Positions 1 through 17,663 of a DNA stretch of 32,000 nt are shown one piece after another. Position numbers and translations under genes: made by a program. The first letter of the stretch is position 1; the number at the start of each line of letters is the position of its first letter. The stretch is taken from assembly GCF_000527175.1 (NCBI RefSeq), contig NZ_AZUR01000001.1, positions 2,170,921 through 2,202,920 on the forward strand, written 5' to 3'. The notes under the pieces were generated by a model that saw nothing but the letters and a program-made list of their open reading frames with translations, was not told the origin of the DNA and ran no database searches. The stretch comes from Pseudogulbenkiania sp. MAI-1. GTDB taxonomy: Bacteria > Pseudomonadota > Gammaproteobacteria > Burkholderiales > Chromobacteriaceae.

Positions 1-1
1 C

Positions 2-280
2 GACCTGCGCGTGCTACGTCCGCTGGACGACGCAACACTGGTCGCGTCGGTCGGCAAGACGCACCGCGTGGTGATTGTCGACGAAGGCTGGAGGAGCGGC
101 AGTCTGGCCGCCGAGGTAATGGCACGTCTGACCGAGCAGGCGTTCTATGAGCTGGATGCGCCACCCGCCCGCGTCTGCTGCGCCGAAGTACCCATCCCGT
201 ATGCCAAACATTTGGAAGACGCGGCGCTGCCGCAGGTGACGACAATCGTCGCCGCGGCGCGCGCCGTGTGTGGAAAATAG
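2..280 (+). CDS. 2-oxoacid (pyruvate/acetoin-type) dehydrogenase E1 component beta subunit, C-terminal fragment (5' end off window)
   Basis: The translation ...[74 protein letters not shown]... is the transketolase-C-like C-terminal domain of E1beta subunits. The frame is open to the window edge. Confidence 0.85.
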
Positions 281-294
281 CACTGGAGATCAGC

Positions 295-747
295 ATGGAC
301 GACACCGCCCGCCAGAAGGTGCTGGAAGTGATGAATACCCACAATATCTGCACCCTCGCCACCGTTCGCGAGGACGGCTACCCCCAGGCGACCACGGTCG
401 CCTACGTCAACGATGGGCTCACTATCTATCTGTGCTGCGACGTGCACGCCCAGAAGCTGCGCAACATCCGGCTCAACAACAAGGTCTCGCTCGCCATCGA
501 CCACGACTACGCCGACTGGCGCGAGATACGCGGGTTGTCGCTAGGCGGCATCGCGGAAGAAGTGCAAGACCCGGACGAGATCGAACAGGCCCTCGACCTG
601 ATGCAGGCCAAGTTCCCGGAAATCACCAGCATGGGGCCGGTGGAAACCATGGCGAGCGTCCTCGCGGTGATCAAGGTCACGCCCCAGGTCATCTCGCTGC
701 TCGATTACCGCCAGGGATTCGGCTACACGGAATATCTGGAGGTCTAG
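295..747 (+). CDS. Pyridoxamine-5'-phosphate-oxidase-like (FMN-binding split-barrel) family protein
   Basis: ATG at 295 is preceded by GGAG (285-288). The sequence MDDTARQKVLEVMNTHNICTLATVREDGYPQATTVAYV...VSLAIDHDY...LSLGGIAEEV resembles general-stress-protein-26 / PNPOx-like proteins. The track start at 268 (GTG) would overlap the E1beta stop. Confidence 0.7.
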   Translation: MDDTARQKVLEVMNTHNICTLATVREDGYPQATTVAYVNDGLTIYLCCDVHAQKLRNIRLNNKVSLAIDHDYADWREIRGLSLGGIAEEVQDPDEIEQALDLMQAKFPEITSMGPVETMASVLAVIKVTPQVISLLDYRQGFGYTEYLEV

Positions 748-886
748 CCCACGCTTGCGCCATGGGATGGGACGGAACGGCTCTATCGGGGCGGGCTCGC
801 CATCATGCCCCGGCAACATGACGTGTTTCCCCCTGCGGGAAACATGAAACGGACCGCCATCGTCGATGCGCACCCGCCGAGAAGGA

Positions 887-1978
887 ATGGCGATGATTGA
901 ATTCAGGCTTCCCGCTCTGGGCCCCGACATGGACGAAGGCACGCTGCTGGAGTGGAAGATTCAGCCCGGTGCAGCGCTGAAGCGGGGCGATATTGTCGCG
1001 GTGGTCGATACCGCCAAGGCGGCGGTGGACGTGGAAAGCTGGGTCGAGGGTACCGTGCATGAACTCCTGATCGGTGTTGGCGACAAGGTGCCGACCGGTA
1101 CGCCGATCGCCCTGATCCGGGCGCCCGGCGAATCCGAGGAAACCGCCCGTCGCCCGGCCACCGAGCGGCGCCGTGTTTCGCCTGCGGCGCGCAAACGCGC
1201 AACCGAGCTGGGGGTCAACATCGCCGCCGTAGCCGGATCGGGACCAGAGGGGACGATTACCTTAGAGGACATCGAGGCGGCCGCCCAGCACGCCGCGGCG
1301 CCGGCACCGGACCGCGGTTCCGAAATGCGCCATGCGATTGCAGCGGCGATGAGCCGTTCCAAACGCGAGATCCCGCACTACTATCTGGCCGAGACCATCC
1401 CGATGCAGTTGGCGCTCAACTGGCTCGAACAACACAATGCCGAGCGCCCCGTGACCGAACGCCTGTTGCCGGCAGTGCTCCTGTTGAAGGCCGTTGCCCT
1501 CGCCACTCGGCGCTTTCCGGAAATGAATGGCCACTGGATCGACGGCGCCTTCCAGGCGGCCGCAGCGGCTCATGTCGGCGTGGCGATTTCATTGCGGCAG
1601 GGTGGACTGATCGCACCGGCGATCCATGATGTGGCTGCCAAATCACTGGACGTGCTGATGCACGAACTGACCGATTTGGTGAAGAGGACGCGAGCCGGCT
1701 CGCTGCGCAGTTCCGAGCTGGCCGATCCCACGTTGACCGTTACCAATCTGGGCGAGCAGGGCGTCGAGTCGGTATTTGGCGTGATCTATCCGCCACAGGT
1801 AGCGCTGATCGGGTTCGGGCGGGTGATGGAGCGACCGTGGGTGGAGCAGGGCACGCTGGTGGCGATGCCTACCGTCATTGCCAGCCTGTCAGGCGACCAC
1901 CGCGCGAGCGACGGCCACCGCGGCGCACGGTTCCTGGCGGAAATCCGCGCGCTGCTGCAACAACCAGACGCACTGTGA
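887..1978 (+). CDS. Dihydrolipoamide acyltransferase (E2) with lipoyl domain, E1/E3-binding domain and catalytic domain
   Basis: The lipoyl domain is LPALGPDMDEGTLLEWK...VVDTAKAAVDVES, with the lipoyl-Lys in DTAKA. The subunit-binding domain is RVSPAARKRATELGVNIAAVAGSGPEGTITLEDIE. The catalytic motif is SGDHRASDGHRGARFL. Start is ATG 887 (GAAGGA upstream) or ATG 893; the track start at 866 is less likely. Confidence 0.9.
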   Translation: MAMIEFRLPALGPDMDEGTLLEWKIQPGAALKRGDIVAVVDTAKAAVDVESWVEGTVHELLIGVGDKVPTGTPIALIRAPGESEETARRPATERRRVSPAARKRATELGVNIAAVAGSGPEGTITLEDIEAAAQHAAAPAPDRGSEMRHAIAAAMSRSKREIPHYYLAETIPMQLALNWLEQHNAERPVTERLLPAVLLLKAVALATRRFPEMNGHWIDGAFQAAAAAHVGVAISLRQGGLIAPAIHDVAAKSLDVLMHELTDLVKRTRAGSLRSSELADPTLTVTNLGEQGVESVFGVIYPPQVALIGFGRVMERPWVEQGTLVAMPTVIASLSGDHRASDGHRGARFLAEIRALLQQPDAL

Positions 1979-2006
1979 CGTACTACCGTTGAGCGGAGAG
2001 GCCATC

Positions 2007-2267
2007 ATGGACCGAGCAAACCTTCGTGCCGCCGTCATCGATACACTGCGAGTCATTGCGCCGGAAGTGGAAGAGGGCGAATTGCGTGACGACCGCCCTC
2101 TGCGGGAGCAAGTCGACCTCGACTCGATGGATTGGCTCAATTTCATCATCGGCCTGCACGAACGGTTGGACGTCGACATTCCTGAGGCCGACTACCGGCA
2201 GTTGGCATCGCTGAACGCCGTGGTCGACTATCTGGCAGCCCGGCTTCAGGGCGCACCAAGCGAATAA
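2007..2267 (+). CDS. Stand-alone acyl carrier protein (phosphopantetheine attachment Ser in DLDSMD)
   Basis: ATG 2007 lies in frame inside track ORF 1878-2267, 28 nt after the E2 stop, with GGAGAGG upstream. The 86-aa product MDRANLRAAVIDTLRVIAPE...QVDLDSMDWLNFIIGLHERL... has a typical ACP helix II. Confidence 0.8.
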   Translation: MDRANLRAAVIDTLRVIAPEVEEGELRDDRPLREQVDLDSMDWLNFIIGLHERLDVDIPEADYRQLASLNAVVDYLAARLQGAPSE

Positions 2268-2327
2268 GTATGCCATCGCCGATGGTCCCCCCCTCGATAG
2301 CGCCCATCCTCCTGGCGGCCATGCACG

Positions 2328-5123
2328 ATGACCACTCCCGACCCTTCCTTTACCCCACCGCAACAGGCTGAACGCCTGTTGGCGGTAGTGCGCCAGCTTG
2401 AGCGTGAAATGCACCCGGCCCACCCCGAAGACGTCACGCTGGACAGTGCGCTGGAGCGCGACCTGGGCTTCGATAGCCTGGCTCGGGTCGAGTTGGTGCA
2501 GAGGGTGGGCAAGGCCTTCGGCGTGCACCTGCCGGACGATGCTCTAGCGCAGGCAGAAACGCCGCGCGACCTGCTGAACTTCCTCGGCCAGCCGGCCCAT
2601 GCCGCACCCCAGCCCTTCGCCACACCACTGGGCGGTGCCAGCGCAGTCGCACCACCTCGCCAAGCGCACACCTTGCCCGAGGTACTGGCCTGGCATACAG
2701 AGCGCCAGCCGGAGCGAGTCCATGTGTTGCTGTATGGTGAACGGCAGGAAGTACAGCCCATCAGTTACCGTCAATTGTTCGAGGCGGGGAGGGCTGTTGC
2801 TGGTGGCCTGGCAGCACGCGGCCTGATGCCCGGCCAGACCATCACCCTGATGCTGCCAACCGGCCTCGGCTACCTGAAAAGCTTTATCGGCGTGTTGATG
2901 GCCGGCTGCGTGCCGGTGCCAATCTACCCGCCGGCACGGTTGGCGCAGATCGAAGAGCACCTGCGCCGCCATGCACGCATCCTGTCGAATGCCGGCACCT
3001 CCCTAATGATCACCGTGGAGGAGGCAAAACCGGTCGCACGGATACTGCGCACCAAGGTCAGCAGCCTCACGGCGGTGCTGACGCCAGAAGAACTGAGTGA
3101 TGCCCCAGCGGCCACCATCTTCCCTGCGCAAGCTTCCGACTTAGCCTTGCTGCAATACACCTCTGGCAGTACCGGTGACCCGAAGGGCGTCACGCTCACC
3201 CACACCAACCTGCTCGCCAATATCCGCGCAATGGGCCAGATCATCGGCATCACGGCAGAGGACATCGGCGTATCCTGGCTGCCGCTTTACCACGACATGG
3301 GTTTGATTGGGGCCTGGCTCGGGTCGCTCTACCATGGCTTCCCTTTGGTGCTGATGTCGCCACTGGCCTTCCTCTCCCAGCCGGCGCGCTGGCTGCAGGC
3401 GATCTCGCGTCACCATGCAACATTGTCGGGCGCACCCAACTTCGCTTATGAGCTGTGCGTCCACAAGATCGACGACAGCGAACTGGAGGGGGTCGATCTG
3501 TCGAGCTGGCGTTTCGCCTTCAACGGTGCCGAGCCGGTCAGTCCAGCTACCCTGGACGGTTTTGTCGATCGCTTTGCGGCGCACGGCTTCAGACGGGAAG
3601 CCATGACACCCGTATACGGTTTGGCTGAGTCTTCGGTCGCGCTAGCGTTTCCACCGGTCGGCCGCGGGCCGCTCATCGATGTCATTGCGCAGGAGCCGTT
3701 CGCCACCGCGGGGATGGCAGTGGCCTCCGTCGATCAAGCCGACGTTCTGCGCATCCCTTCCTGCGGCCGGCCCTTGCCTGGCCATGAGATACGCATCGTG
3801 GGCGAAGACGGCAAGGAACTGCCGGAACGCAGGGTCGGGCGGCTCGAGTTCCGTGGCGTCTCGGTCACCCGCGGTTACTATCGGAACCCCGAGGCAACCG
3901 ACTCGCTGTTCCACGATGACTGGCTGGACTCCGGCGACAACGCCTACATGGCCGATGGAGAGGTCTATCTGACAGGCCGGGTCAAGGATCTGATCATCCG
4001 TGGCGGACGCAACTTTTATCCGTACGATCTGGAGGAGGCGATCGGCAACCTGCCGGGCATCCGAAAAGGTCTCGTGGCGGCATTCGCCAGTCCCGACCTG
4101 ACAAAAGGCACCGAGCGCCTGATCGTGCTTGCCGAAACCCGGACGCGAGACCCTGTTGTGCTGGAGACGCTCCGGCAGCACATCAGAAAAACCGCTACCG
4201 ACGTGACGGGATCGCCGGTGGACGACATCGTGCTGGCCCCACCGCACACTGTGCTGAAGACATCCAGCGGCAAGATCCGGCGACTGGCCTGTCGGCAGGC
4301 TTATGAACGAGGCGAGTTGGGCGTGGCACAGCTCCCGTCGTGGCGGCACGCCCTGAAGCTATGGGCCGGGGCTGGGCTTGCGCGTCTTCATATCGCCTAC
4401 AGGCAGTTTGCGGCGTGGTGCTATGGCGTTTACACGTGGATGATACTGTTGGCACTGATGTTGCCGGCAGGCGTGCTGACGATCGCCCTGCATCGGCCTG
4501 CGCTGGGACGACGCATCGTTCGTGCCGCGGCACGCGTCGGCCTGCACCTTATCGGCTTGCCGGTGACGACCGCCGGGCTCGAACGCTTGCCGGCACAGCC
4601 GCACGTGCTGCTGATCAACCATGCCAGTTACCTGGACGTGCTGCTGCTGACCGCCTTGCTACCTGCCACGCCCGGCTACACCTTCACCGCCAAGCGTGAA
4701 CTGCAGTCCCGGCCAGTGCTCAGAGCCTTGCTGACCAGCCTGGGTACCTGCTTCATCGAGCGCTTCGATGTTCGCCAAAGCAGGGAAGGCGTCGACGCGA
4801 TGGTCGAAGCGTTGCGGGCAGGTGAAAACCTGCTGGTGTTTCCGGAGGGTACCTTCACTCGTGAGGCGGGGCTGCGGCCATTTCACTTGGGCGGATTCAT
4901 CGCCGCCGCCGTGGCCAACGTACCGGTGGTCGTCGCGGCCCTGCGCGGTACCCGTATCGTGCTGCGCGATGGCACGTGGCTGCCGCGACGCGGTCCGGTC
5001 GACTTCGTGGTTGGCCCGAGCCTGATGCCACGCGGAGTGGGGTGGCCGGCGGCGATGGCGTTGAGCCAGGAAATACGACGCATCATGCTGCCGCTCTGCG
5101 GTGAGCACGATGCATCGCCATGA
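2328..5123 (+). CDS. Multidomain lipid enzyme: N-terminal carrier (PP-binding) domain, fatty-acyl-AMP-ligase-like adenylation domain, transmembrane segment(s), and C-terminal PlsC/LPLAT acyltransferase domain
   Basis: Carrier motif is DLGFDSLARVELV. Adenylation motifs are LQYTSGSTGDPKGV, WLPLYHDMGLIG, FNGAEPV, VYGLAESSVAL, SGDNAYM, IIRGGRNFYPYDLE and KTSSGKIRR. The hydrophobic stretch is YGVYTWMILLALMLPAGVLTIAL. Acyltransferase motifs are NHASYLD (HX4D), CFIERF, VFPEGTFT and VPVVVAAL. Confidence 0.85.
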   Translation: MTTPDPSFTPPQQAERLLAVVRQLEREMHPAHPEDVTLDSALERDLGFDSLARVELVQRVGKAFGVHLPDDALAQAETPRDLLNFLGQPAHAAPQPFATPLGGASAVAPPRQAHTLPEVLAWHTERQPERVHVLLYGERQEVQPISYRQLFEAGRAVAGGLAARGLMPGQTITLMLPTGLGYLKSFIGVLMAGCVPVPIYPPARLAQIEEHLRRHARILSNAGTSLMITVEEAKPVARILRTKVSSLTAVLTPEELSDAPAATIFPAQASDLALLQYTSGSTGDPKGVTLTHTNLLANIRAMGQIIGITAEDIGVSWLPLYHDMGLIGAWLGSLYHGFPLVLMSPLAFLSQPARWLQAISRHHATLSGAPNFAYELCVHKIDDSELEGVDLSSWRFAFNGAEPVSPATLDGFVDRFAAHGFRREAMTPVYGLAESSVALAFPPVGRGPLIDVIAQEPFATAGMAVASVDQADVLRIPSCGRPLPGHEIRIVGEDGKELPERRVGRLEFRGVSVTRGYYRNPEATDSLFHDDWLDSGDNAYMADGEVYLTGRVKDLIIRGGRNFYPYDLEEAIGNLPGIRKGLVAAFASPDLTKGTERLIVLAETRTRDPVVLETLRQHIRKTATDVTGSPVDDIVLAPPHTVLKTSSGKIRRLACRQAYERGELGVAQLPSWRHALKLWAGAGLARLHIAYRQFAAWCYGVYTWMILLALMLPAGVLTIALHRPALGRRIVRAAARVGLHLIGLPVTTAGLERLPAQPHVLLINHASYLDVLLLTALLPATPGYTFTAKRELQSRPVLRALLTSLGTCFIERFDVRQSREGVDAMVEALRAGENLLVFPEGTFTREAGLRPFHLGGFIAAAVANVPVVVAALRGTRIVLRDGTWLPRRGPVDFVVGPSLMPRGVGWPAAMALSQEIRRIMLPLCGEHDASP

Positions 5124-5192: not shown

Positions 5193-6119
5193 TCACTCCG
5201 CTCGACGCTCCGTCGGGCTGGCCCCGCAGACATCCCGGATCGCCTCCGCCAACCAGCGCTCCAGCGATATCGCATTGCTGGGATGCGCTATCGTATTGCA
5301 ACTCACCACCCGGGCCGCGCCACTGGAAGTCAGCCTCGCCACCGCATCCTCGGCGAAAACGGCATGCACTGCGATGCACACCGCCGGCTTGGCCCCCATC
5401 TGTTGCAAATGGCGCAAGGTCTCGGCCATGGTATGGGCCGTCGAAACGATATCATCCACCAGTACCGGAGTACGCCCGAGAAGTTGCGCCATCTCGGGCC
5501 GCGACACCTCCACCTGGTGATCACCATGCCGGATCTTGTCAAGCACGGCGTATGGCACCTTGGCCAAGGAGGCGACTTCCGCGACCCACTGCTCGCTTTC
5601 GGAATCGGGTCCGATCAGGATCGGTGCCGGCACGTTGGCGGCCACCCATTCCGCCATGGCCGGAGCGGCATGCACCACACGGGTAGGGCAGTCGTACACC
5701 TGATCCAGAGCGGTGATGCGGTGTAGATGGGGATCGACGGTGACCAGCCAGTCGAGATGGGATGACAACAGCTTGGCAAAATAGCGCGCCGTCACCCCCT
5801 CGCCAGGAGCGAAGCGGGCATCCTGTCGCATGTAAGCCAGGTAGGGCGCCAGCAGCCCGACTTCGACCGCGCCATAGTCACGCACCAGCGACGCGGCAAA
5901 CAGCAAGGGGAGCAGCTTGGCGTCCGGGCGGTCCAACGTTGCCGCCAGCACCACCCGAGCCCCCTCCACCTTGCTCAACAGGCGCAGGTGGGTTTCGCCA
6001 TCGGGGAAAACGCGCACGGCCAACTCGCCCCGCTCCGCCGGCCTCGGCAAAGCGGGTTGCTTCAGCAACGCGTCGGCCAACGCCTCATTGCCGGGCAAGG
6101 GTAGAACGACCGTATTCAT
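5193..6119 (-). CDS. Ribose-phosphate pyrophosphokinase (PRPP synthetase) family protein
   Basis: 308 aa with a Prs-like N-terminal domain (VRVFPDGETHLRL...VVLAATLDRPDAKLLPLLFAA) and a PRTase-type ribose-P loop (PVLVDDIVSTAHTM). Its start overlaps the stop of the upstream gene by 4 nt (6116-6119). Confidence 0.8.
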   Translation of the reverse strand: MNTVVLPLPGNEALADALLKQPALPRPAERGELAVRVFPDGETHLRLLSKVEGARVVLAATLDRPDAKLLPLLFAASLVRDYGAVEVGLLAPYLAYMRQDARFAPGEGVTARYFAKLLSSHLDWLVTVDPHLHRITALDQVYDCPTRVVHAAPAMAEWVAANVPAPILIGPDSESEQWVAEVASLAKVPYAVLDKIRHGDHQVEVSRPEMAQLLGRTPVLVDDIVSTAHTMAETLRHLQQMGAKPAVCIAVHAVFAEDAVARLTSSGAARVVSCNTIAHPSNAISLERWLAEAIRDVCGASPTERRAE

Positions 6120-7621
6120 GGTTCGTTTATCACCACAATCTCGGGGTGCGTTTCCAGATAGCCGAGGGCATACTCCAGTTCGCCGGGCGTCTCGGCATGG
6201 ACGGTGAACAACGGCATGCCTGGCTCGACGACGCTGCCGACCCTGACATGCAGGTCCAAGCCGGCGGCAGGAGCGCGGGGAGCGCCTGCCAACTTGGCAG
6301 CCCGGCTGACCAGACGGTTATCGACAGCGCCGACCAGGCCAGAGACAGCCGCGCAGACCGGATGGGTGTAAGGCGCAACCGGAGGCTGGCGCAGCCCCCC
6401 TTGGGCGTTGGCGATGGCAAGAAACTTATGCCATGCCCGACCGGAATCCAGCAACTGCCGGGCCAGGACAGTGCCGGTACCGTCTGCCGCCTTGCCGCAA
6501 AACTCCAGCAAACCACCGGCCAGCATCAGTGCACGTTCACGCAAATCTTCCGGAGCCGTGGGTTCATTTCGCAATACTGTCAACAAATCGCGGGCCTCCA
6601 AGGCCGGCCCGACGCCCCGGCCAACCGGTTGGCTGCCGTCGGTGAACACAATACGGACATCCAGGCCCACGCCCTTGGCCACATGCTTCATCAAGGTTTC
6701 CAGCAAGGCGGCCGCTTGCGGCGAACGAACCTTGGCCGTGCGTCCGACCGGGATATCGATCAGGACATGACTCGAACCGGCTGCCGCTTTCTTTGAAAGC
6801 ACGGAGGCGACCAGCTGGCCTTCGCTATCGAGGTCCATCGGCCGTTCCACACGAATCAGGATATCGTCCGCAGGGCTCAGGTTGACCGCGCCACCCCAGA
6901 CAATGCAGCCTCCCTCTTGCTCGACGACCCGACGGATTGTAAGCAAGTCCAAATCCACCGGCGCCAAGGTTTCCATCGTGTCGGCGGTTCCCGCCGGAGA
7001 GGTGATGGCTCGGGAAGAGGTCTTGGGCATGATAAGCCCCGCAGCCGTGGCGATCGCCACCACGATGGGCGTGGTGCGATTGCCAGGCAAGCCTCCGACG
7101 CAGTGTTTGTCCGCAATCGGGGCACTCCCCCAGTCCAGACGTTGGCCCGCATTCACCATGGCACGGGTCAATGCCACGGTTTCTTCCACATCCAACCGTC
7201 CGCCGGCGCAAGCAGCGACAAAAGCCGCCAGATAGATGTTGGGATAACGCCCCTTCGCCACGTCGTTGATGATGCACTGGATTTGCGACTCGTCCAGACG
7301 GTTCCCATAGATTTTGCGCCGTAGCGCCACCAGGGATTCCAGTGGCGGCATCGGCAGCACCCGAATGGTTTCACCTTCGCGCCCGCCCAGCTGATTCCAC
7401 GCCGCCGAAGACAGGCCCGCCTCGTGCGGCGCGAGAATCGACGAATCGACCACGTTCAACGTCGCCACGATCTCTACGCCGTTGCGGGTCACCCGCACGC
7501 GCGATTGCGCTTCAAAGCCTTCGGAGCGGCAGACCTCGCAATCGCGCCTCATATAGATCACCGCCTCCTGATAGGTATCGATTCCGAGCCACTTCAAGTG
7601 CAATTCATGACCAGCGCCCAC
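6116..7621 (-). CDS. Thymidine phosphorylase family protein, long 'putative thymidine phosphorylase / AMP-phosphorylase-like' form
   Basis: 501 aa. An N-terminal extension (LKWLGIDTYQEAVIYMRRDCEVCRSEGF...) precedes the glycosyl-transferase family 3 core (DKHCVGGLPGNRTTPIVVAIATAAGLIMPKTSSRAITSPAGTADTME) and the C-terminal PYNP domain. Confidence 0.85.
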   Translation of the reverse strand: MGAGHELHLKWLGIDTYQEAVIYMRRDCEVCRSEGFEAQSRVRVTRNGVEIVATLNVVDSSILAPHEAGLSSAAWNQLGGREGETIRVLPMPPLESLVALRRKIYGNRLDESQIQCIINDVAKGRYPNIYLAAFVAACAGGRLDVEETVALTRAMVNAGQRLDWGSAPIADKHCVGGLPGNRTTPIVVAIATAAGLIMPKTSSRAITSPAGTADTMETLAPVDLDLLTIRRVVEQEGGCIVWGGAVNLSPADDILIRVERPMDLDSEGQLVASVLSKKAAAGSSHVLIDIPVGRTAKVRSPQAAALLETLMKHVAKGVGLDVRIVFTDGSQPVGRGVGPALEARDLLTVLRNEPTAPEDLRERALMLAGGLLEFCGKAADGTGTVLARQLLDSGRAWHKFLAIANAQGGLRQPPVAPYTHPVCAAVSGLVGAVDNRLVSRAAKLAGAPRAPAAGLDLHVRVGSVVEPGMPLFTVHAETPGELEYALGYLETHPEIVVINEP

Positions 7622-9222: not shown

Positions 9223-9501
9223 TCACAACAGATCCACAACCCGATACGTCGGCTGATTCCTGTTTTCGTCCAATGCCTGATCACGTCGATACGTGACCCA
9301 CCAGCGATACGAGTCGAGCACGAAACGGCGGTTGAAACGGCGAGCCATCCTCTGACGAACCATGTAGCGCTGGAAAACGGACTCGATCAGCCGATTGCCC
9401 AGGCGAAACAACAGCCACATCAGGTAAGGCAACATCGAGATCAAGGCCATCCACTGAAAGAACAGCTCCAGGTCGGCGCGGGTGATGACGTAGGTTTCCA
9501 T
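9223..9501 (-). CDS. Phage small membrane protein (92 aa), unknown function
   Basis: The start ATG overlaps the Zot stop (TAATG at 9499-9503). A hydrophobic segment (FFQWMALISMLPYLMWLLF) is followed by an Arg-rich tail. Confidence 0.55.
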   Translation of the reverse strand: METYVITRADLELFFQWMALISMLPYLMWLLFRLGNRLIESVFQRYMVRQRMARRFNRRFVLDSYRWWVTYRRDQALDENRNQPTYRVVDLL

Positions 9502-10643
9502 TACGAGTTGTCCTCCTTGGATGATTTCATGCCCCCGAAGGGCTGATAGGCCGGAGCCTGTTTAGAGGCCTCAAGCTGGGCGATCTGCGGGCCGCTGCCG
9601 GGCTGCTGATCAACCGGCTTGGCCTGAGCCACAACTGGCCCCGCGTACTGCGGCGCGGCCTTGTACGGGTTGTGCCGGCCGTTGGCGACGATGTCGCGGC
9701 AGGTCGGTTCGTCGACGGTCCTGATCAACGTGCCTTGCCCGCTGTAGCAGCTGCACCGGGTTGTGCTAGCAACGCAGGCGTCAGGCCATTCCATGTCTTT
9801 GACCTGGCGCTGGCTGTCGAAGATGGGAGCGGTCTCAGGACGGTTCAGGACGACCGGCTGAAAGTCGAGTGGGCGAACGCCGATCGGTGCCTGTACCGGT
9901 GCCGCGCCACCCTGCCCGCCCGCCCCCGCGCCCGGCTGCGCCGGTCTCGGGTCCGAGCTGGCGGTGGCCGCGGGCCTGTCCGGCGTCGTACGGCGTTTGA
10001 CGCTCCCGTAGACGTACCAGCCAGCAATGGACGCAAGCAGCAGACAAACCACGAAAACGATCAACGGCTTCGGGATGGAGTACTTTTGCTTGATGTGCAG
10101 GCTCGACGACTTGTACAAGTCGAAGACCTGTTTCGGGAGCTTGTACTTGCGCTTGGCCGCAATATCACGTTCGGTCTTGCTCTCAGCGTCGACCGCCTTC
10201 GGCCACTCATAGAGCTTGCGGCCGAAGAAGTTCGATTCGATGTGCAGGTGTTTGCCGGCCAGCGCCCGAACGTTGGCGTCCAGGAGAGTGGTCTTTTGCG
10301 TGATCAGCCAGAAATCGACCCCGGTATGGCGATGGGTCTCGAACGCGGCCACATAGTCCGGAACCTTGGAGCTTGTGTTGCGAGGGCGGTAAACGTTCTG
10401 CGCCTCATCAATGACGATGATCGACCCCGGTGGGAAGGTGAAAACAGGCTTCAGCAAGGACGGGTCTTCCTCGGCCGGCACCAACTTGGTCCACTCCGCC
10501 ACCGGAGGCACCAATTGATGATCGAGCTTGAGTTCAGGAATACCCATGGTGAAGATCGGGCGATTGCCTTCCAGCTCCTTCAGCAGCTTGACCGCCAGCG
10601 CGGTCTTGCCCGCCCCGGGCGTACCAGTGATCACGGTAATCAT
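9501..10643 (-). CDS. Zot / pI-like filamentous-phage assembly ATPase
   Basis: It has an N-terminal P-loop (MITVITGTPGAGKTALAVK), a Walker B-like IIVIDEAQ, a central TM helix (LIVFVVCLLLASIAGWYVY) and a Pro/Ala-rich periplasmic C-terminus. There is an ATGA overlap with the upstream gene. Confidence 0.9.
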   Translation of the reverse strand: MITVITGTPGAGKTALAVKLLKELEGNRPIFTMGIPELKLDHQLVPPVAEWTKLVPAEEDPSLLKPVFTFPPGSIIVIDEAQNVYRPRNTSSKVPDYVAAFETHRHTGVDFWLITQKTTLLDANVRALAGKHLHIESNFFGRKLYEWPKAVDAESKTERDIAAKRKYKLPKQVFDLYKSSSLHIKQKYSIPKPLIVFVVCLLLASIAGWYVYGSVKRRTTPDRPAATASSDPRPAQPGAGAGGQGGAAPVQAPIGVRPLDFQPVVLNRPETAPIFDSQRQVKDMEWPDACVASTTRCSCYSGQGTLIRTVDEPTCRDIVANGRHNPYKAAPQYAGPVVAQAKPVDQQPGSGPQIAQLEASKQAPAYQPFGGMKSSKEDNS

Positions 10644-10918
10644 GTCGTCAACACCCCGATGCGTTTCGTGACCACCAAACCAATGCGATAGGCCACCGCC
10701 CCGGAAAGAATGCCAAGGGCCTGCCCTGCCCCAGCCAGACCGAGCAGCGCAGCAACTGAGGGGATGATGCCGTTGAGGTTGTTCTGAATAAGCGTATTGA
10801 TCGCACCAAGGGCCGTACTCAGACCGGCATACGTAATAACGCCCAAGCCAATCGAGGCGAGCACCTGCTTGGCGGCGGGGGCGACCAGCGCAAACAACGC
10901 GGAAGCAAAGTTAGCCAT
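10640..10918 (-). CDS. pVI-like minor coat / membrane protein (DUF2523-like, 92 aa)
   Basis: The product is very hydrophobic and Gly/Ala-rich (MANFASALFALVAPAAKQVLASIGLGVITYAGL...). It sits in the conserved position between the pIII-like and Zot genes and overlaps both neighbours. Confidence 0.7.
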   Translation of the reverse strand: MANFASALFALVAPAAKQVLASIGLGVITYAGLSTALGAINTLIQNNLNGIIPSVAALLGLAGAGQALGILSGAVAYRIGLVVTKRIGVLTT

Positions 10919-12215
10919 CTTGTTTCATCCCAAACATGAGGTAGAGCGCCGCCAGACCGGCAAAGGCGATGACAATCGGTCGAATGCCTGTGGCGAAATC
11001 ACATGACGGCTGCCATGTCATAGCGACCGTGGCGAAATGAAGATGCAATTGCTGAGGGGCCGGGCACGTCGACGGCAGGCTGAACGGCGACCAGCTGAAC
11101 GTCGGGTTGATCTGCTGCTGGCCGATCTCGGGACCGCTGGGGGCATCGCCCCAATCCGAGCAGCCGATGCTGTTCGGCTTCTTGTCGCAGTCGGTTTTCT
11201 GTTCCTGCTGGGCGGTGCTGTTCTTGTAGGTCTGGTTGGTCTCGGTCTTGGTCGTTACCGAGTTGTCGGTGTTGTAGATATTGGTCGTCTTGGTCTGAAT
11301 GACGGATTCCTTAACCGGAGCCGGGTCTTCGGCAGGACGTTCGCCCAGGTCGATTTCCCACTTCAGCATTTCCTGTAGCTGGTAAGTCTCAGTCGAGCCG
11401 TCGGCATTCTGTTTGGTGCCGGTACCCACCAGCTTTTGCGGAGAGAGTGCGTCGGCGAGCTGCTGGATTTTGTTGGTGGCGTCCTGTAGCTCGATGTTGC
11501 GCTGAGCCAGCTCGCGCAGAACGTCGGCAGGCTGGGCATTCACGACCCCCTCAGCCTGTTGAAGAAAATCGGCATCGGTCGCCGGTTTCGGACTGGACGG
11601 ATTGATGTCATTTTCCCTGTAAACGTAAAAAGAGCCGCCGCCGACCCACGTAATGCGATGCGCCGTAGCACTATCAATCGTCTTGATCCAACAACCAGTT
11701 TTACCGTAATACGTGCAACCATAGGCCATGGCTTCATCATGAGTACCGTAAAAAATTGGATTACTCATGAAGCGCCACGTGCCAGAGTATTGCTCAGCAA
11801 CGGCAGGTTTCATCCATTGTTCGTTTGACCACTCCCAGCCCTGTTGAAGCAGCCACTGCGCCAGCACGGAGCCGGCTAATCCGACCGGTGACACGGACAT
11901 GCCTACCCGAGCGGCATTGACCACGCCGGACTTGGGTATCTTGGACAAGACGTTGACGGCCACCTGAGCCGCCGTACCGGTGGCCGCATCGCCCATCGCC
12001 TGTGACCACGAGCGGTTGACCTCGACGGTCGGGCCATTGACCGTGGCAGTAGCGCCAGCCCCCGCCGTCGCATTGCCTTGGGGAACGCGGTTCAGATTGC
12101 CGCCGCTGTGGCTGTAGCCATCGTTGACGGTCCAGCCCGCCGAGGCGTAGCCGGTCAGCAGCGTGGCAACGAAGCCGAGCAGGAAGAAAGCGAAGTTGCG
12201 GAGGTGGCGGTTCAT
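10911..12215 (-). CDS. pIII-like minor coat / host-attachment protein (434 aa)
   Basis: It has an N-terminal signal/anchor (FAFFLLGFVATLLTGYASA) and a C-terminal membrane anchor (IRPIVIAFAGLAALYLMFGM). Its size and position (after the small coat ORFs, before the pVI-like gene) fit gene III analogues. The sequence itself was not recognised. Confidence 0.65.
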   Translation of the reverse strand: MNRHLRNFAFFLLGFVATLLTGYASAGWTVNDGYSHSGGNLNRVPQGNATAGAGATATVNGPTVEVNRSWSQAMGDAATGTAAQVAVNVLSKIPKSGVVNAARVGMSVSPVGLAGSVLAQWLLQQGWEWSNEQWMKPAVAEQYSGTWRFMSNPIFYGTHDEAMAYGCTYYGKTGCWIKTIDSATAHRITWVGGGSFYVYRENDINPSSPKPATDADFLQQAEGVVNAQPADVLRELAQRNIELQDATNKIQQLADALSPQKLVGTGTKQNADGSTETYQLQEMLKWEIDLGERPAEDPAPVKESVIQTKTTNIYNTDNSVTTKTETNQTYKNSTAQQEQKTDCDKKPNSIGCSDWGDAPSGPEIGQQQINPTFSWSPFSLPSTCPAPQQLHLHFATVAMTWQPSCDFATGIRPIVIAFAGLAALYLMFGMKQDG

Positions 12216-12280
12216 CGCGTCAGCACCAGAGCGGCAAGCACCACCGAGGCGAAGCCGGCGAGGAAATAGGGATCGATCAC
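12212..12280 (-). CDS. Unlisted 22-aa hydrophobic ORF, pVII/pIX-like minor coat candidate
   Basis: The minus strand reads AGGAGGGCGCT-GTG ATC GAT CCC TAT TTC CTC GCC GGC TTC GCC TCG GTG GTG CTT GCC GCT CTG GTG CTG ACG CGA TGA, giving (M)IDPYFLAGFASVVLAALVLTR. A strong RBS precedes it. GTGA overlaps the upstream stop and ATGA overlaps the pIII-like start. Confidence 0.5.
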   Translation of the reverse strand: MIDPYFLAGFASVVLAALVLTR

Positions 12281-12588
12281 AGCGCCCTCCTAACGAGTTT
12301 GGCCGCGAAGGCAGCGAACATCACAGCAGCAACCAGCCAGCCAAGTGCCATGCCATCCAAAGTGCGGTCGAGGTTGGAACAGTCAGGAAAAGAAGAGACA
12401 GCCGTGGTGGACGACTGGAGGACCATCGAACCGCTCGCGGAGTCGTAGCGGTTCAGTTTCCAGACACCACCGTCGAGCTGGTATTGCGTGACGGTGGACC
12501 CGGAAACGGCAGGCGGTACGCCACCGAAGTAGACCGCTTCCGCCTCCGACTGCGATTCGTAGCAGGCTACCCCGACAGCGTACCCCAT
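12277..12588 (-). CDS. Phage protein with C-terminal membrane anchor (103 aa), possible minor coat protein
   Basis: It starts 3 nt after the major coat stop. The C-terminal TM segment is MALGWLVAAVMFAAFAAKLVRRAL. No family was recognised. Confidence 0.55.
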   Translation of the reverse strand: MGYAVGVACYESQSEAEAVYFGGVPPAVSGSTVTQYQLDGGVWKLNRYDSASGSMVLQSSTTAVSSFPDCSNLDRTLDGMALGWLVAAVMFAAFAAKLVRRAL

Positions 12589-12591
12589 GGC

Positions 12592-12792
12592 TTAAGCCGC
12601 CTTGCGCATGTACTTGAACGCGGCAATGCCGATGATGACCACCAGCACAGCGCCGCCGATTACGGCAGCATCGGTGCCGGCATCGTTCAGCGCGGTGGTC
12701 ACGGCAGCCGGAACAGCGGCCATGGCGGAGCCAGCAACAGCCAGGGTGGAACCGGCAACGGCAACGAGCTTGGTTTTCATGGATTTGAACAT
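12592..12792 (-). CDS. Major coat protein (pVIII-like, 66-aa precursor)
   Basis: AAGGAG lies 7 nt upstream of ATG 12792. The signal peptide is MFKSMKTKLVAVAGSTLAVAGSAMA. The ~41-aa mature part has an acidic N-terminus (NDAGTD), a hydrophobic core (AAVIGGAVLVVIIGIAAF) and a basic C-terminus (KYMRKAA). Confidence 0.85.
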   Translation of the reverse strand: MFKSMKTKLVAVAGSTLAVAGSAMAAVPAAVTTALNDAGTDAAVIGGAVLVVIIGIAAFKYMRKAA

Positions 12793-12837
12793 GGTGATAC
12801 TCCTTCAGGGTTATGCGCCGTAGCGCGGGGAAATCGG

Positions 12838-14004
12838 TTAGGCCGCTTGCTGGGCAGCTTGCTCGGCCTTCTGCACCGCTTGCAGGCTGAGCTTGCGCTG
12901 GTGGTCCCAGTACCACGCCGGGGCGTCCACCAGCGGGGTGATCTCGACCACCTTGATGACGGTGGAAAACTTGTGCAGCGTCGGCAGCGGTTCGCTGATG
13001 TCCAGGCCGTAGTCGCGCAGGCTCTTGGCGTGGCGGAAGAAGGTGGCGCGGGACATGAGGGCGCGGACGTTCTCGCCGCGCAGGAAGGCGGCGGCGGTGA
13101 CGCGCACCGGGGCCGGGAGGTCCTCCAGCTGGAAGCGGGTGACGTCGGCCTTGGTGCGGGCCAGCAGCGGGTCGACCTCACCCGCGAAGAGGTTGACGAG
13201 CTTGGTCATGGTGATGTCTCCGAGGAAACGCAGTGAGTTGTCACGCAACATGAGGCGGGAGGCTTCGAGTTCGAGCCGGACGATGCCTTGCTGATTACAG
13301 AACTGATAAACGGGGTCGGATTCAATTTCGGAACGTGGGCGCCCGTGACGGTGCACGAGCATTTCAGGGGCCTTCAGGTAGGCCTTGAGGTACTTCCGGC
13401 CTCCCTTGGTGCCCCATACGACGGTGGTCTCCCCTGCCCGGCCGCGCTTGACCTTGGAGAGCGATTGCGTGGCGAGCCAGTCAATCATGGCTTGGGCGTT
13501 GGCCGCCGAGCCGGTGGCGTAGTTGCGCGTCAGGTGCAGGGTGGAGACGCTGGCACCGGTCCATTCGGTGATCTGGCCGGTCTTGATGTCGTAGTCAGAC
13601 GGGTCTTGCTTTGCCACCTCTTCACCGGCGGTAAAAGGGGGCAAACCAAGCTCAGCCAGAATGCGGTTGATGCGGTCGAGGGTGGCGTCGAAGTCCAGGT
13701 TGAACAGGTTGTCGGGGCGACCGAAGCGGCCCACGTTGCCTTCGAACTCGACGCGTCGACCATCGCAACGGACGATGTACAGGGAGTCGAAGGAGCCCTC
13801 GAAGTGGCGGCGGCTGACGCTGATGTACTCGGGTTTCAGCGTGCCGTCCTCGAACTCCTCGAACTCGCCAGCTTCGTTGCGGGCGTATTTGCAGACCCAG
13901 CCGCTATCGACCATCGGCAGCTTTTCGAACTCGTTGGTGTCGAGGTCGAAGCGCAGCTGGTGCGACTGGCTGATGCGGATGAAGTCGACAAATACGCCTT
14001 GCAT
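12838..14004 (-). CDS. Rolling-circle replication initiation protein (gene II / Phage_CRI-like)
   Basis: 388 aa beginning MQGVFVDFIRISQSHQL...LYIVRCDGRRVEFEGNVGRFGRPDNLFNLDF..., resembling filamentous-phage/plasmid gene II/X-family initiators. ATG 14004 overlaps the upstream stop (TGATG). The track start at 14007 is TTG. Confidence 0.8.
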   Translation of the reverse strand: MQGVFVDFIRISQSHQLRFDLDTNEFEKLPMVDSGWVCKYARNEAGEFEEFEDGTLKPEYISVSRRHFEGSFDSLYIVRCDGRRVEFEGNVGRFGRPDNLFNLDFDATLDRINRILAELGLPPFTAGEEVAKQDPSDYDIKTGQITEWTGASVSTLHLTRNYATGSAANAQAMIDWLATQSLSKVKRGRAGETTVVWGTKGGRKYLKAYLKAPEMLVHRHGRPRSEIESDPVYQFCNQQGIVRLELEASRLMLRDNSLRFLGDITMTKLVNLFAGEVDPLLARTKADVTRFQLEDLPAPVRVTAAAFLRGENVRALMSRATFFRHAKSLRDYGLDISEPLPTLHKFSTVIKVVEITPLVDAPAWYWDHQRKLSLQAVQKAEQAAQQAA

Positions 14005-14333
14005 CAATGAACCCCTGCGGCCTTGTCGAGCTTGTAGGGGATGGCGACCTTGTAGTCCTGCACGTAGCCCTCGAGGCCCTTGCCGAACTTGTCCAGGCGC
14101 TGGCCGAGCACGAGCTCGACTTCGCAGGGGTACGGCAGGGTCAGGAACTTGGCGACGGCGGTTTCGTCGATCGGCAATTCGCTGATCTGGAAGCCAGCGG
14201 CCATCTTGTTGAAGGCCTCCGAGGAAACGTTCTCTTCAGGGCGCAGGACACGAACGAAGTGCATCTCGAACGGCTTGCCGGTTTTCTTGGCTTTGCCGTT
14301 CATCTTCACGACGGCGATGGCGGGGACTCTCAT
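14004..14333 (-). CDS. Phage protein (109 aa), possible ssDNA-binding/replication accessory protein
   Basis: It is translationally coupled to the replication gene, small and basic/beta-rich (MRVPAIAVVKMNGKAKKTGKPFEMHFVRVLRP...). The function is inferred only from size and position. Confidence 0.5.
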   Translation of the reverse strand: MRVPAIAVVKMNGKAKKTGKPFEMHFVRVLRPEENVSSEAFNKMAAGFQISELPIDETAVAKFLTLPYPCEVELVLGQRLDKFGKGLEGYVQDYKVAIPYKLDKAAGVH

Positions 14334-15579: not shown

Positions 15580-16368
15580 TCAACTAGTTGATGTAATCGG
15601 TTCGGCCGCCGCCTTCTGCAGCAGGCCGCTCCGTCGCTTGTCGCGTAGCCGGTAACTATCTCCCCGGATCGTGACCACCTGGCTGTGATGCAGCAGCCGA
15701 TCCAGGATGGCCGTTGCCACCACTGCGTCACCAAACACTTGGCCCCATTCCCCCACCGGGCGGTTGCTGGTGATCAGTAGGCTTGCCCGCTCATAGCGCC
15801 GCGAGACCAGCTGGAAGAACAGGTGCGCTGCCGCCGGCTCCAGCGGCAGGTAGCCCAATTCATCGACGATCAGCAGCTTGGGTTTCGATAGCTGCAACAG
15901 CTTCTCCTCCAAGCGCCCATCGGCATGCGCCTTCGTCAGTCCAGCCATCAGAGACGCAGCAGAACTGAACAGCACCGTGTAACCCCGTTCTACCGCCTCA
16001 CGCCCGAGTGCTACCGCCAAATGCGTCTTGCCGACTCCGGGCGGTCCCAGCAGCAACAACGCTTGACCGTGGCCAATCCAGCGCCCGGTGGCCAAATCCC
16101 GGACCTGGCCGGGATCAATCGACGGCTGCGCATCGAAGTCGAAGCCCTCCAGCGTGCGTACACAGGGGAATCGAGCCAGCTTCATCCCCATCTGGATGCG
16201 TCGCGTATCGCGCCGGGCCACCTCTCGCTCGGCCAGGAGCAGCAGCGCTTCGCGCAGTGTCATTTGGGCACGGCTCGCTTCGTCCAGCAGGCTATCCAGC
16301 TGATCCCGGATCGCCGTCAAGTGCAGCCGGGTCAACAGTTCTTCCAGTCGGTCGGGTTCGATCATCAC
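15580..16368 (-). CDS. istB: IS21 helper ATPase IstB
   Basis: 262 aa with LLLLGPPGVGKTHLAVALG (Walker A), LLIVDELGY (Walker B) and the typical IstB N-terminus LTRLHLTAIRDQLDSLL. There is an ATGA overlap with the istA stop. Confidence 0.92.
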   Translation of the reverse strand: MMIEPDRLEELLTRLHLTAIRDQLDSLLDEASRAQMTLREALLLLAEREVARRDTRRIQMGMKLARFPCVRTLEGFDFDAQPSIDPGQVRDLATGRWIGHGQALLLLGPPGVGKTHLAVALGREAVERGYTVLFSSAASLMAGLTKAHADGRLEEKLLQLSKPKLLIVDELGYLPLEPAAAHLFFQLVSRRYERASLLITSNRPVGEWGQVFGDAVVATAILDRLLHHSQVVTIRGDSYRLRDKRRSGLLQKAAAEPITSTS

Positions 16369-17582
16369 CAGCCCCCTCCGACCAATTCCTCATACTCTGC
16401 CAGCGGGCGCAGCAAAGCGCCGCCGTGTGGCGGGACCGGCTCGGATAGCGGCGGCACGACCCCAAGCAGATGGGCGCGGTCAATTTGCCGTCCGCGACTG
16501 CCGGCCAACTCGGCGTGATGCGCTACTTCCTGGCCGGCGTAATGGACCGTCACCGTGCCTGCTCGTACAACGACCGTGACCATCTCGCCGATCAGCCGCC
16601 AGGGCACGCTGTAGGCATTAGTATCGAGCTCGACACAGCCTTCGGCATTGACGCGACGGATCAGCTCCCGCACTTGCAGGAACGGCACTATGCCGGCAAC
16701 AGGACGCAGATGCGGACGTTCGCCGTCGAACCGCTCCTTGGGCGCCATGCCGGTCGTCCCGTGGATGCGGGTATCGGCCACCTCCCGCTGCCAGCGGGTC
16801 AAGTGAGCCTCCAATGCGGCCCAGCTCTCGAATGTGTAACCGGCGATAGCATTCTTCTTCACATAGCCAACGCCGTTCTCGGTCTTGCCCTTGGTGCGCG
16901 CACGGAACGGCGCGCAGGCCTTCACGCGCACATCCCAATGCCGGCAGAACGCCTCGAAGCGGCTATTGAAGCGGACCTGCCGGGTCTGCATGTCGTGCTC
17001 GACCACGAGGGCCTTGGCGTTATCGATCAGCAGAGTCTGCACCCGTCCACCGAAGTGCTCGAACGCCGCTTCGATACCGCCAAACCAAGCACTCTGCCGT
17101 TCGTGACGGAATGGGCAAACAAAGCCACGGCGCGAGTAGCCAAGCGTCGCCACGAACAGGTACACACGCACCAGTTCGCCACCGATCTGGATGCGCACTT
17201 GGCCGAAGTCGATCTGCATCTGCTCGCCAGGAGCAGTCTCGAACCGGATCGTCGCTCGCCGGCTGGCTTCAAGCTCCTGCCGATATGGCCGGCAGGCGCG
17301 TTCAACGGTGCGCAGGCTGGTGGCAATACCGTGTTCCTTAGCCAGCAGCTGACGCACCACGTCGCAGTTGCCCTTGTGCGTTAGAAACTGCTCACGTAGC
17401 CAGGCCTCGTGCCCGGTGAGCACGCCGCTGCGTTGCGGCTGCTGGTATGGCACCGGGCCGCCGGCACGCAAATAGTGCCGCACGGTATTTCGGGCGATTC
17501 CCAGCGTCTTGGCAATCCGCTTCGCCCCCCAGCCGGATTGCCCCAGTCGAACGATTGCCGTTACTGCTTCCGGCTCCAACAT
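16365..17582 (-). CDS. istA: IS21 transposase IstA
   Basis: It has an N-terminal HTH (SGWGAKRIAKTLGIARNTVRHYLR) and a DDE/integrase core (QMQIDFG...LFVATLGYSR...LLIDNAKALV...RTKGKTENGV). ATG 17582 is the preferred start; the track start at 17663 is an alternative. Confidence 0.9.
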   Translation of the reverse strand: MLEPEAVTAIVRLGQSGWGAKRIAKTLGIARNTVRHYLRAGGPVPYQQPQRSGVLTGHEAWLREQFLTHKGNCDVVRQLLAKEHGIATSLRTVERACRPYRQELEASRRATIRFETAPGEQMQIDFGQVRIQIGGELVRVYLFVATLGYSRRGFVCPFRHERQSAWFGGIEAAFEHFGGRVQTLLIDNAKALVVEHDMQTRQVRFNSRFEAFCRHWDVRVKACAPFRARTKGKTENGVGYVKKNAIAGYTFESWAALEAHLTRWQREVADTRIHGTTGMAPKERFDGERPHLRPVAGIVPFLQVRELIRRVNAEGCVELDTNAYSVPWRLIGEMVTVVVRAGTVTVHYAGQEVAHHAELAGSRGRQIDRAHLLGVVPPLSEPVPPHGGALLRPLAEYEELVGGGW

Positions 17583-17663
17583 CTCCCGTACTCCACAAAC
17601 CTCACGGGGTACAGGATGACTCGCTGAATACTGCGTTTCCAACGACTGCCTCCTTGCAAACAA

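Follow-up and report, generated by a model that had tools for sequence, protein, structure and literature searches.

Pyruvate dehydrogenase (PDH)-like E1/E2 enzymes that load a C2 unit onto a dedicated acyl carrier protein (ACP) are known from the Qnc and Scl systems, in which QncL acts on QncM and SclQ4 on SclQ1 (PMC6335953). E. coli Aas, a 2-acylglycerophosphoethanolamine acyltransferase/acyl-ACP synthetase, works with LplT and re-acylates lysophospholipids via a phosphopantetheinyl carrier (PMC11416262). Here we compare with these systems the genes at the 5' end of a 32,000-nt stretch of Pseudogulbenkiania sp. MAI-1 DNA (contig NZ_AZUR01000001.1; the whole stretch is called the window). Five co-directional + strand genes fill its first 5.1 kb, and encode the end of an E1beta, a PNPOx-like flavoprotein, an E2, a small ACP, and a fusion of a carrier domain, a fatty acyl-AMP ligase (FAAL) domain, membrane helices and a PlsC-type acyltransferase. 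The initial annotation had read them as one pathway for an unusual lipid. Comparison with related loci (about 175 in all, numbered with an L below) did not bear this out: the conserved unit is a cassette of five genes, AcsA-E1alpha-E1beta-E2-ACP, and the fusion lies outside it. We propose with moderate confidence that two modules have been brought together here, a putative acetyl-carrier cassette and a self-sufficient Aas-like fusion, and that they do not form one biosynthetic line.

The part of the cassette that lies in the window was examined with profile models and motifs, which confirmed that the listed genes and features are present on the + strand where they had been placed. The 3' end of the PDH-type E1beta gene (2..280, +), the third gene of the cassette, is cut by the window edge; it encodes the E1beta C-terminus (Transketolase_C, 1e-20; PDH E1beta PRK11892, 1.9e-29). 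The E2 dihydrolipoyl acyltransferase gene (893..1978, +; 361 aa from the NCBI start, the longest open reading frame being 866-1978) showed PF00364 (Biotin_lipoyl), PF02817 (E3_binding) and PF00198 (2-oxoacid_dh) above cut-off. Lipoyl lysine (DTAKA), subunit-binding domain and a DHRxxDG motif (DHRASDG) were all present, which places the protein in the E2 family, and among 88 homologues the lipoyl lysine, the subunit-binding domain and DHRxSDGH were conserved (motifs in at least 90%). The protein scored under every NCBIfam E2 equivalog cut-off, the best match being TIGR01349 with 219 bits against a required 445. The last cassette gene encodes the dedicated carrier protein of 86 aa (2007..2267, +) and starts exactly 28 nt past the E2 stop codon, as first noted. 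It was assigned as a carrier protein by PF00550 (1e-6; 29 bits, cut-off 20.8) and by its conserved serine, Ser40 in DLDSMD (2124-2126, +), the predicted site of phosphopantetheine attachment; its scores were under all NCBIfam ACP cut-offs. The family shares the motif LRxQVDLDSMDWLNF, with the serine in at least 90% of 80 sequences, and comprises 2938 clusters at 90% identity. An ACP identical to that of the window is on record for Pseudogulbenkiania sp. MAI-1.

The first two genes of the cassette were not seen in the initial annotation because the window starts inside E1beta. By the gene order of relatives, AcsA and E1alpha are almost certainly encoded a short way upstream of window position 1. 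The E1beta of the window is 97% identical to that of L166/L167, where AcsA and E1alpha are found upstream, and the content before that position was read off L166, which is 92% identical to the window. Exact-protein searches with the E2, the ACP and the fusion gave a 2-kb Logan contig only. In the closest relatives (L166, L168) NfeD and Band_7 genes precede the cassette.

A metagenome scan with the E2 gave 80 loci, with E2 identities of 50-65%, and these loci showed, where the contig allows, the order of an AMP-ligase of about 580 aa, E1alpha, E1beta, E2 and ACP on one strand. The first-gene ligase passed PRK04319 (acetate--CoA ligase) with 862-915 bits (cut-off 729), E1alpha passed the PDH equivalog TIGR03182 with 434-441 bits (cut-off 394), and E1beta passed the curated model PRK09212. 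The ligase upstream of E1alpha had also been considered as a stand-alone FAAL, and this was rejected, as the PRK04319 score assigns it to the acetate--CoA-ligase type. The cassette was found in Proteobacteria, Actinobacteria and Desulfobulbia and is often plasmid-borne. The PGAP annotation lists acsA, pdhA, E1beta, E2 and ACP on plasmids or chromids of many taxa, among them Burkholderia savannae, Burkholderia sp. JP2-270, Cupriavidus sp. USMAHM13, Rhodococcus DK17, Streptomyces fungicidicus, Methylocystis rosea, Leisingera (with E1alpha and E1beta fused) and Desulfotalea psychrophila; in unannotated records of Cupriavidus KK10 and C. oxalaticus, tblastn gave the same gene order. The cassette is a horizontally mobile operon, and we found no paper that describes it. 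In D. psychrophila, a strict anaerobe, the cassette is on a conjugative plasmid and a lipoate-protein ligase gene follows the ACP (L172, 10526-11536), which implies that the lipoyl arm of this E2 is needed, though no E3 is encoded nearby.

The pairing of E2 and ACP was also counted. The ACP gene was directly downstream of the E2 gene in 85 of 92 loci, or about 97% of the informative ones; of the seven E2 loci without a scored ACP, four are contig ends and one has an annotated ACP that tblastn missed. The recurrence of the pair in 85 of 92 loci puts the arrangement far beyond chance. Because the median gap between the two genes was -1 nt, with stop and start codons overlapping in 49 pairs, the data indicate that E2 and ACP are translationally coupled across phyla. 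No ketosynthase, acyltransferase or phosphopantetheinyl transferase (PPTase) gene was conserved with the ACP in the cassette neighbourhoods, and the sole enzymes constantly encoded with it are two thioester formers, E2 and the AcsA-type ligase. The wiring of this E2 to a carrier protein is strongly supported by these comparisons. As both of the constant partners form acetyl thioesters of phosphopantetheine, the ACP would most simply serve as acceptor for E2, AcsA or both.

The precedent of the Qnc pathway, to which the initial annotation had appealed, fits this arrangement. By description, QncN/QncL/QncM (quinocarcin) and SclQ1-4 (scleric acid) share with the cassette a thiamine-dependent E1, a lipoyl/acyltransferase E2, a small ACP alongside and the lack of an E3 in the cluster (PMC6335953). 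The dedicated ACP of these systems has its counterpart in the ACP that follows E2 in the loci counted above. However, the Qnc and Scl genes belong to nonribosomal peptide synthetase (NRPS) clusters, and their products start from ketose phosphates and supply an assembly line, whereas the cassette has no assembly line and is always accompanied by an acetate-type ligase; no NRPS or polyketide synthase (PKS) gene was conserved beside it. It also differs in that its E1alpha passes a genuine PDH model and in its spread across phyla, plasmids and stress islands. The cassette may, by analogy, work like a Qnc-type system despite the missing assembly line, and the TIGR03182 score of E1alpha argues for an enzyme of primary-metabolism type rather than a Qnc-like one.

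The same comparison bears on the substrate. The E1/E2 pair might use acetoin, a branched-chain 2-oxoacid or, as in Qnc, a ketose phosphate, and so place a unit other than acetyl on the ACP. Such a substrate would agree with three observations: the E2 matches no named E2 at equivalog level, ketose phosphates serve the Qnc and Scl systems (PMC6335953), and in S. fungicidicus a Zn-dependent alcohol dehydrogenase gene adjoins the ACP gene. However, the model passed by E1alpha, TIGR03182, is PDH-specific, the constant presence of an acetate-type ligase points to C2 (acetyl) chemistry, and the cassette has no linked NRPS or PKS that could use the unit. We therefore regard a substrate of another kind as quite improbable.

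The cassette was then compared with PdhABCD and AcoABCL operons. It has in common with them the E1alpha, E1beta and E2 domains, the lipoyl lysine, the subunit-binding domain and DHRxxDG, and it differs in that it has no E3, a carrier coupled to its E2, an acetate ligase as its first gene, and an E2 under the equivalog cut-offs. No E3 (dihydrolipoyl dehydrogenase) gene was found in the window, in 165 related loci or in the annotation tables, which extends the first observation that none was visible. The probe was an E. coli Lpd sequence, an approximate query that matched only two distant flavoproteins, and the absence of E3 rests also on the annotation tables for this reason. A canonical PDH operon is not what these data describe, since no E3 lies alongside and the E2 falls outside the named E2p equivalogs; the earlier proposal, which would fail if E1 and E2 came from a standard pdh or acoABCL operon, holds in this respect, given the missing E3 and the coupling of ACP to E2 across phyla.

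A conventional role is nonetheless a possible, if rather unlikely, explanation. The cassette would then be an auxiliary supply of acetyl-CoA, made up of Acs and PDH with a housekeeping E3, the ACP would be for example an octanoyl donor or a structural or regulatory subunit, and the fusion would be unrelated. AcsA, E1alpha and E1beta score above the curated cut-offs of canonical enzymes, the E2 retains the E3/E1-binding domain and all catalytic residues, the lipoate-protein ligase gene follows the ACP in Desulfotalea, and PGAP gives all genes ordinary labels. However, this explanation leaves unaccounted for a divergent ACP that is coupled to E2 in nearly all informative loci, and an E2 that reaches none of the E2 equivalog cut-offs; moreover, octanoyl groups already come from the housekeeping AcpP.

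The gene between E1beta and E2 encodes a PNPOx-like flavoprotein of 150 aa (295..747, +; PF01243, 1e-19), which the initial annotation had listed with the other genes. This gene was present in the window, Pseudogulbenkiania subflava, Crenobacter and L134, and was absent from most cassettes. It was deleted in L166/L167 (92% nucleotide identity to the window), where about 510 nt corresponding to window positions 356-865 are missing (L166, 8855-8862; L167, 2035-2042) and only the first 20 PNPOx codons are left. Other cassettes had a PNPOx/nitroreductase pair downstream. The PNPOx gene, lost in such close relatives, is a variable insert outside the cassette core.

The fusion gene (2328..5123, +) encodes a protein of 931 aa; NCBI calls a version of 904 aa, and homologues span the full 931 aa. 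Pfam gave a PP-binding domain at residues 33-86, an AMP-binding domain at 121-518 and a PF01553 acyltransferase domain at 746-869, and the four-part structure originally described was confirmed by Pfam, PDB sequence matches, Foldseek and Kyte-Doolittle analysis. The N-terminal carrier domain (2424..2585, +; PF00550, 2e-10) bears the serine of the GFDSL motif, and D49, S50 and R53 were invariant among 35 homologues. The FAAL domain (residues about 121-665; 2688..4322, +) was assigned from PDB matches, Foldseek and motifs, of which YTSGSTGxPKGV, WLPLYHDMGLIG and KTSSGKIRR were conserved. Two long helices (residues about 671-742; 4338..4553, +) form a predicted membrane anchor; the AlphaFold model (mean pLDDT 79) has helices at 671-721 and 724-742, and Kyte-Doolittle segments place a hydrophobic core at 694-724, before the acyltransferase. 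The PlsC/AGPAT domain (4563..4934, +; PF01553, 1.6e-24) was assigned from PF01553 and from the HX4D (NHASYLD) and EGT (FPEGT) motifs, in which N764, H765, S767, D770 and F838-T842 were invariant among the same 35 homologues. In a set of 75 fusion homologues the motifs were at least 90% conserved.

The identity of the adenylating domain was analyzed further. Its best matches among PDB sequences were the Legionella FAAL 3KXW (3e-90) and the E. coli FAAL 3PBK (3e-79), followed by 7R7E, an olefin-synthase FAAL and FadD23/32/28. Residues 139-658 aligned to 530 residues of 3KXW, compared with 494 of the acyl-CoA synthetase 1ULT, and Foldseek gave a TM score of 0.87 between the AlphaFold model and 3PBK. 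The Foldseek list for the full-length model was filled by FAAL matches, and the PlsC assignment comes from the sequence. The best NCBIfam match of the protein was also a FAAL model (PRK09192, 425 bits, under its cut-off of 600). The domain thus has FAALs as its nearest sequences and folds and an N-terminal domain of FAAL length, with the insertion that sets FAALs apart from acyl-CoA synthetases, and rejection of CoA is predicted for it.

The fusion has full-length relatives in 595 species or more, and of its 120 best matches all but one show the same three Pfam domains. In the source records these proteins are named only "AMP-binding protein", "acyl carrier protein" or "AGPAT". A FAAL-acyltransferase fusion has been reported as an unusual, uncharacterised architecture (PMC8460268; PMC12820801); these FAAL surveys show the same architecture and give no function, N-terminal carrier domain or genomic context for it. 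The fusion had no fixed neighbour, as no partner occurred in more than 10 of 74 clustered loci. A FadD-like long-chain acyl-CoA ligase gene often adjoins it (L169, 11203-12978; L175, 10322-11923; L062, 7964-9796) and in L169 overlaps its start by 17 nt; further AMP-ligase genes flank it in L022, L023, L040, L044, L067 and L072. An E2-like gene beside the fusion in L005 belongs to an ordinary sucA-sucB pair and was dismissed as a coincidence.

Like E. coli Aas, the fusion combines an adenylating domain and an AGPAT-family acyltransferase in one membrane protein. It differs from Aas in its reversed domain order, in an adenylating domain of the FAAL clade, in a carrier in cis where Aas uses a separate ACP, and in the lack of an adjacent LplT. 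It is not an Aas orthologue, since the Aas model NF006386 gave 170 bits against a required 1221, in the ligase part only, and the order is reversed. In Myxococcus, ElbD unites a ligase, a carrier and an AGPAT domain in one polypeptide of ether-lipid synthesis. The fusion is not of the ElbD type either, as Pfam shows in it no reductase (NAD-binding) domain, which in an ElbD-type enzyme would stand between carrier and acyltransferase, and its domain order differs. By analogy with Aas, we infer that the fusion would act as a CoA-independent lysophospholipid re-acylase.

Whether cassette and fusion belong together was judged from their positions in different genomes. Cassette and fusion are no more than 2 kb apart in the window and L166/L167, in Neptuniibacter L050, with an order identical to that of the window, in C. 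oxalaticus and KK10, with the order cassette, optional FadD-like ligase, fusion, and in USMAHM13, with the reverse order of FadD-like ligase, fusion, cassette. The fusion is within about 3 kb of the cassette in the alphaproteobacterial metagenome-assembled genome L062, the modules are 6-8 kb apart in L036 and L080, and in Burkholderia JP2-270 they are about 10 kb apart, with the fusion 13 kb from E2. By a rough estimate, the fusion would be expected by chance within 10 kb of the cassette in about 0.4 of 80 loci, and four were observed. The association is therefore real but facultative. The fusion was absent from all 80 metagenome cassette loci. In P. subflava a LysR gene follows the cassette and no fusion is found there, and in Crenobacter cassette and fusion are on different contigs, with the fusion adjoining a transposase fragment. 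Complete cassettes without a full-length fusion homologue were found on the Actinobacteria and Desulfotalea replicons, and in most of its species the fusion is a stand-alone gene. The synteny of E2, ACP and fusion on which the one-pathway proposal depended thus holds for the ACP and fails for the fusion, which appears as an accessory gene beside the cassette in the lineage of the window.

These positions speak on both sides of that proposal, in which E1/E2 load a unit derived from a 2-oxoacid onto the ACP and the fusion adds a fatty acyl group, yielding a non-canonical lipid or a lipid-linked metabolite. In its favour are the same-strand adjacency in the window, the order cassette then fusion in L050, C. 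oxalaticus and KK10 and its reverse in USMAHM13, the excess over the rough chance estimate, and the FadD-like ligases that accompany the fusion. No + strand terminator was found between ACP and fusion, in a scan that is uninformative in GC-rich DNA and in which promoter and terminator counts were at the level of shuffled sequence. However, the fusion is missing beside the cassettes named above and occurs alone in most species, and no enzyme is present that would attach a C2 unit from the ACP to a lipid. The fusion also carries its own carrier domain and so does not need the free ACP. We consider a single pathway unlikely, and the initial interpretation as a whole is partly supported.

The surroundings of both modules were also compared. 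Recurrent neighbours of the cassette were Usp, Hsp20, nitroreductase, phosphoribosyltransferases, cytochrome c and a GNAT-type ADP-forming acetyl-CoA-synthetase protein, and of the 29 long cassette loci at least 13, and of the 58 fusion loci 11, carried stress-island markers. Usp or Hsp20 genes were near the cassette in six of seven annotated replicons. The cassette of S. fungicidicus is surrounded by six Usp genes, Hsp20, a nitroreductase and pncB, and that of Rhodococcus DK17 stands beside Usp, a GAF-domain sensor kinase with response regulator, pfkB and ppsA. The island of Burkholderia JP2-270 holds both modules together with a "BCAM0308 family protein", BON proteins, Hsp20, nitroreductases and FtsH, and that of Cupriavidus KK10 holds cassette and fusion with homologues of the window PNPOx (48% identity) and phosphorylase (60% identity). 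The low-oxygen-activated lxa locus of Burkholderia cenocepacia and actinobacterial DosR/OsdR dormancy islands have Usp, Hsp20, nitroreductase, BON, phosphoribosyltransferase, Zn-dependent alcohol dehydrogenase, cation ATPase and BCAM0308-family neighbours in common with these loci (PMC3721108). The published lxa description (PMC3721108) makes no mention of a PDH/ACP cassette or of the fusion, nor does the OsdR paper mention an AcsA-PDH-ACP cassette. From such neighbourhoods, cassette and fusion appear to be recurrent cargo of low-oxygen or dormancy-type stress islands, and this shared context is most likely the reason for their side-by-side position in the window.

One of the recurrent neighbours is a protein of about 915 aa that joins an N-terminal GNAT domain to an ADP-forming acetyl-CoA-synthetase-like part (Pat-like; L160, 16708-19446; also L147, L161 and L101). 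Its gene recurs 5-6 kb from the cassette, and the protein could acetylate, and so regulate, the AcsA-type ligase.

For the two modules we propose the following mechanism. In the cassette, E1 would, as its family membership suggests, decarboxylate pyruvate and acetylate the lipoyl arm of E2. The E2, and possibly also AcsA, would hand the acetyl on to the phosphopantetheine thiol of the ACP, instead of or besides CoA, and E3 would be borrowed from the housekeeping complex via the retained subunit-binding domain. In the fusion, the FAAL domain would adenylate a free fatty acid and load the acyl group onto its own N-terminal carrier domain, and the membrane-anchored PlsC-type domain would then move it to a lyso-lipid acceptor without CoA. 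One use of acetyl-ACP would be a CoA-independent acetyl relay, in which E1/E2 make acetyl-S-ACP and AcsA, run in reverse with AMP and PPi, yields ATP and acetate, a portable module of substrate-level phosphorylation for aerobes under oxygen limitation. In Syntrophus an AMP-forming Acs is known to run in reverse and make ATP (PMC4992975); for the cassette such a relay is decidedly doubtful. Primer supply for lipid synthesis is another option for acetyl-ACP.

Several observations weigh against the two-module reading. Direct adjacency of fusion and cassette was seen in no fewer than six independent loci, in some of them with a FadD-like ligase gene between or beside the two, and such juxtaposition exceeds what shared residence in an island strictly requires. 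That the modules have met several times, with a gene order that varies from case to case, makes co-regulation or some looser functional tie between them plausible. The ACP is missing in L111 and decayed in L158, and no fused E2-ACP protein was among the 120 best matches to a concatenated E2 and ACP query. The cassette may also simply produce acetyl-CoA, because AcsA, E1alpha and E1beta pass curated models of ordinary CoA-linked enzymes. The flanks of the window contain no Usp or Hsp20 gene, no FNR/Anr box (TTGAT-N4-ATCAA) was seen around the cassette of the window, L166 or L168, and low-oxygen regulation of the modules is deduced from their neighbours only.

The rest of the window was examined for its gene content. 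Two overlapping genes on the - strand (5193-7621) are convergent to the fusion. One is a PRPP (phosphoribosyl pyrophosphate)-synthetase-like gene (5193-6119, -; PRK07199, 402 bits), and the other an archaeal-type thymidine/AMP-phosphorylase-like gene (6116-7621, -; PRK04350, 681 bits), whose product scored 465 bits with the AMP-phosphorylase model, under the cut-off of 535. The 60%-identical phosphorylase in the KK10 island suggests a nucleotide-salvage pair of the same island type, and the two genes are probably island neighbours outside the operon. A filamentous (inovirus-like) prophage, as remnants or a copy, lies at 9501-14007 (-), where the GC fraction dips to 0.55-0.58; it includes a Zot-family ATPase gene (9501-10643) and a G2P-type replication protein gene (12838-14007). 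An IS21-family element follows at 15580-17663 (-), with the IstA transposase (16365-17663; rve and Mu-transposase C-terminal domains) and the IstB helper ATPase (15580-16368).

Farther downstream, a CcoI/FixI-type copper P-type ATPase is encoded at 22512-24938 (+), with ATPase-cat_bd, HMA and E1-E2 ATPase domains. In L123 a homologue of it follows the cassette ACP directly, and L087 and C. oxalaticus L170 have homologues close to the cassette. An NRPS-like protein of 1389 aa (25960-30129, -) has an adenylation domain, a carrier domain and a C-terminal hexapeptide-repeat region; its gene is 21 kb from the cassette, on the opposite strand, beyond the prophage and the insertion sequence. The gene immediately downstream of it, with a 47-nt overlap, encodes an Sfp-type 4'-phosphopantetheinyl transferase (25140-26006, -). 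No other PPTase is encoded in the window, and in principle this one might also act on the cassette ACP and the fusion.

A PDH-type E2 with a hard-wired carrier protein is otherwise known only from a few antibiotic pathways. The same wiring is seen here in thousands of genomes and metagenome contigs, on mobile plasmids and among stress and low-oxygen survival genes, in genera such as Burkholderia, Cupriavidus, Rhodococcus and Streptomyces. Should the acetyl group be accepted by the ACP, the cassette would be a protein-bound branch of central acetyl metabolism that is now annotated as ordinary pdh genes, and the replacement of CoA by a protein carrier, in a PDH-type complex that serves primary or stress metabolism, would be new if true. 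The fusion, for its part, would represent a very widespread, uncharacterised CoA-free route from free fatty acids to membrane lipids, and this route may be relevant to membrane repair and persistence.

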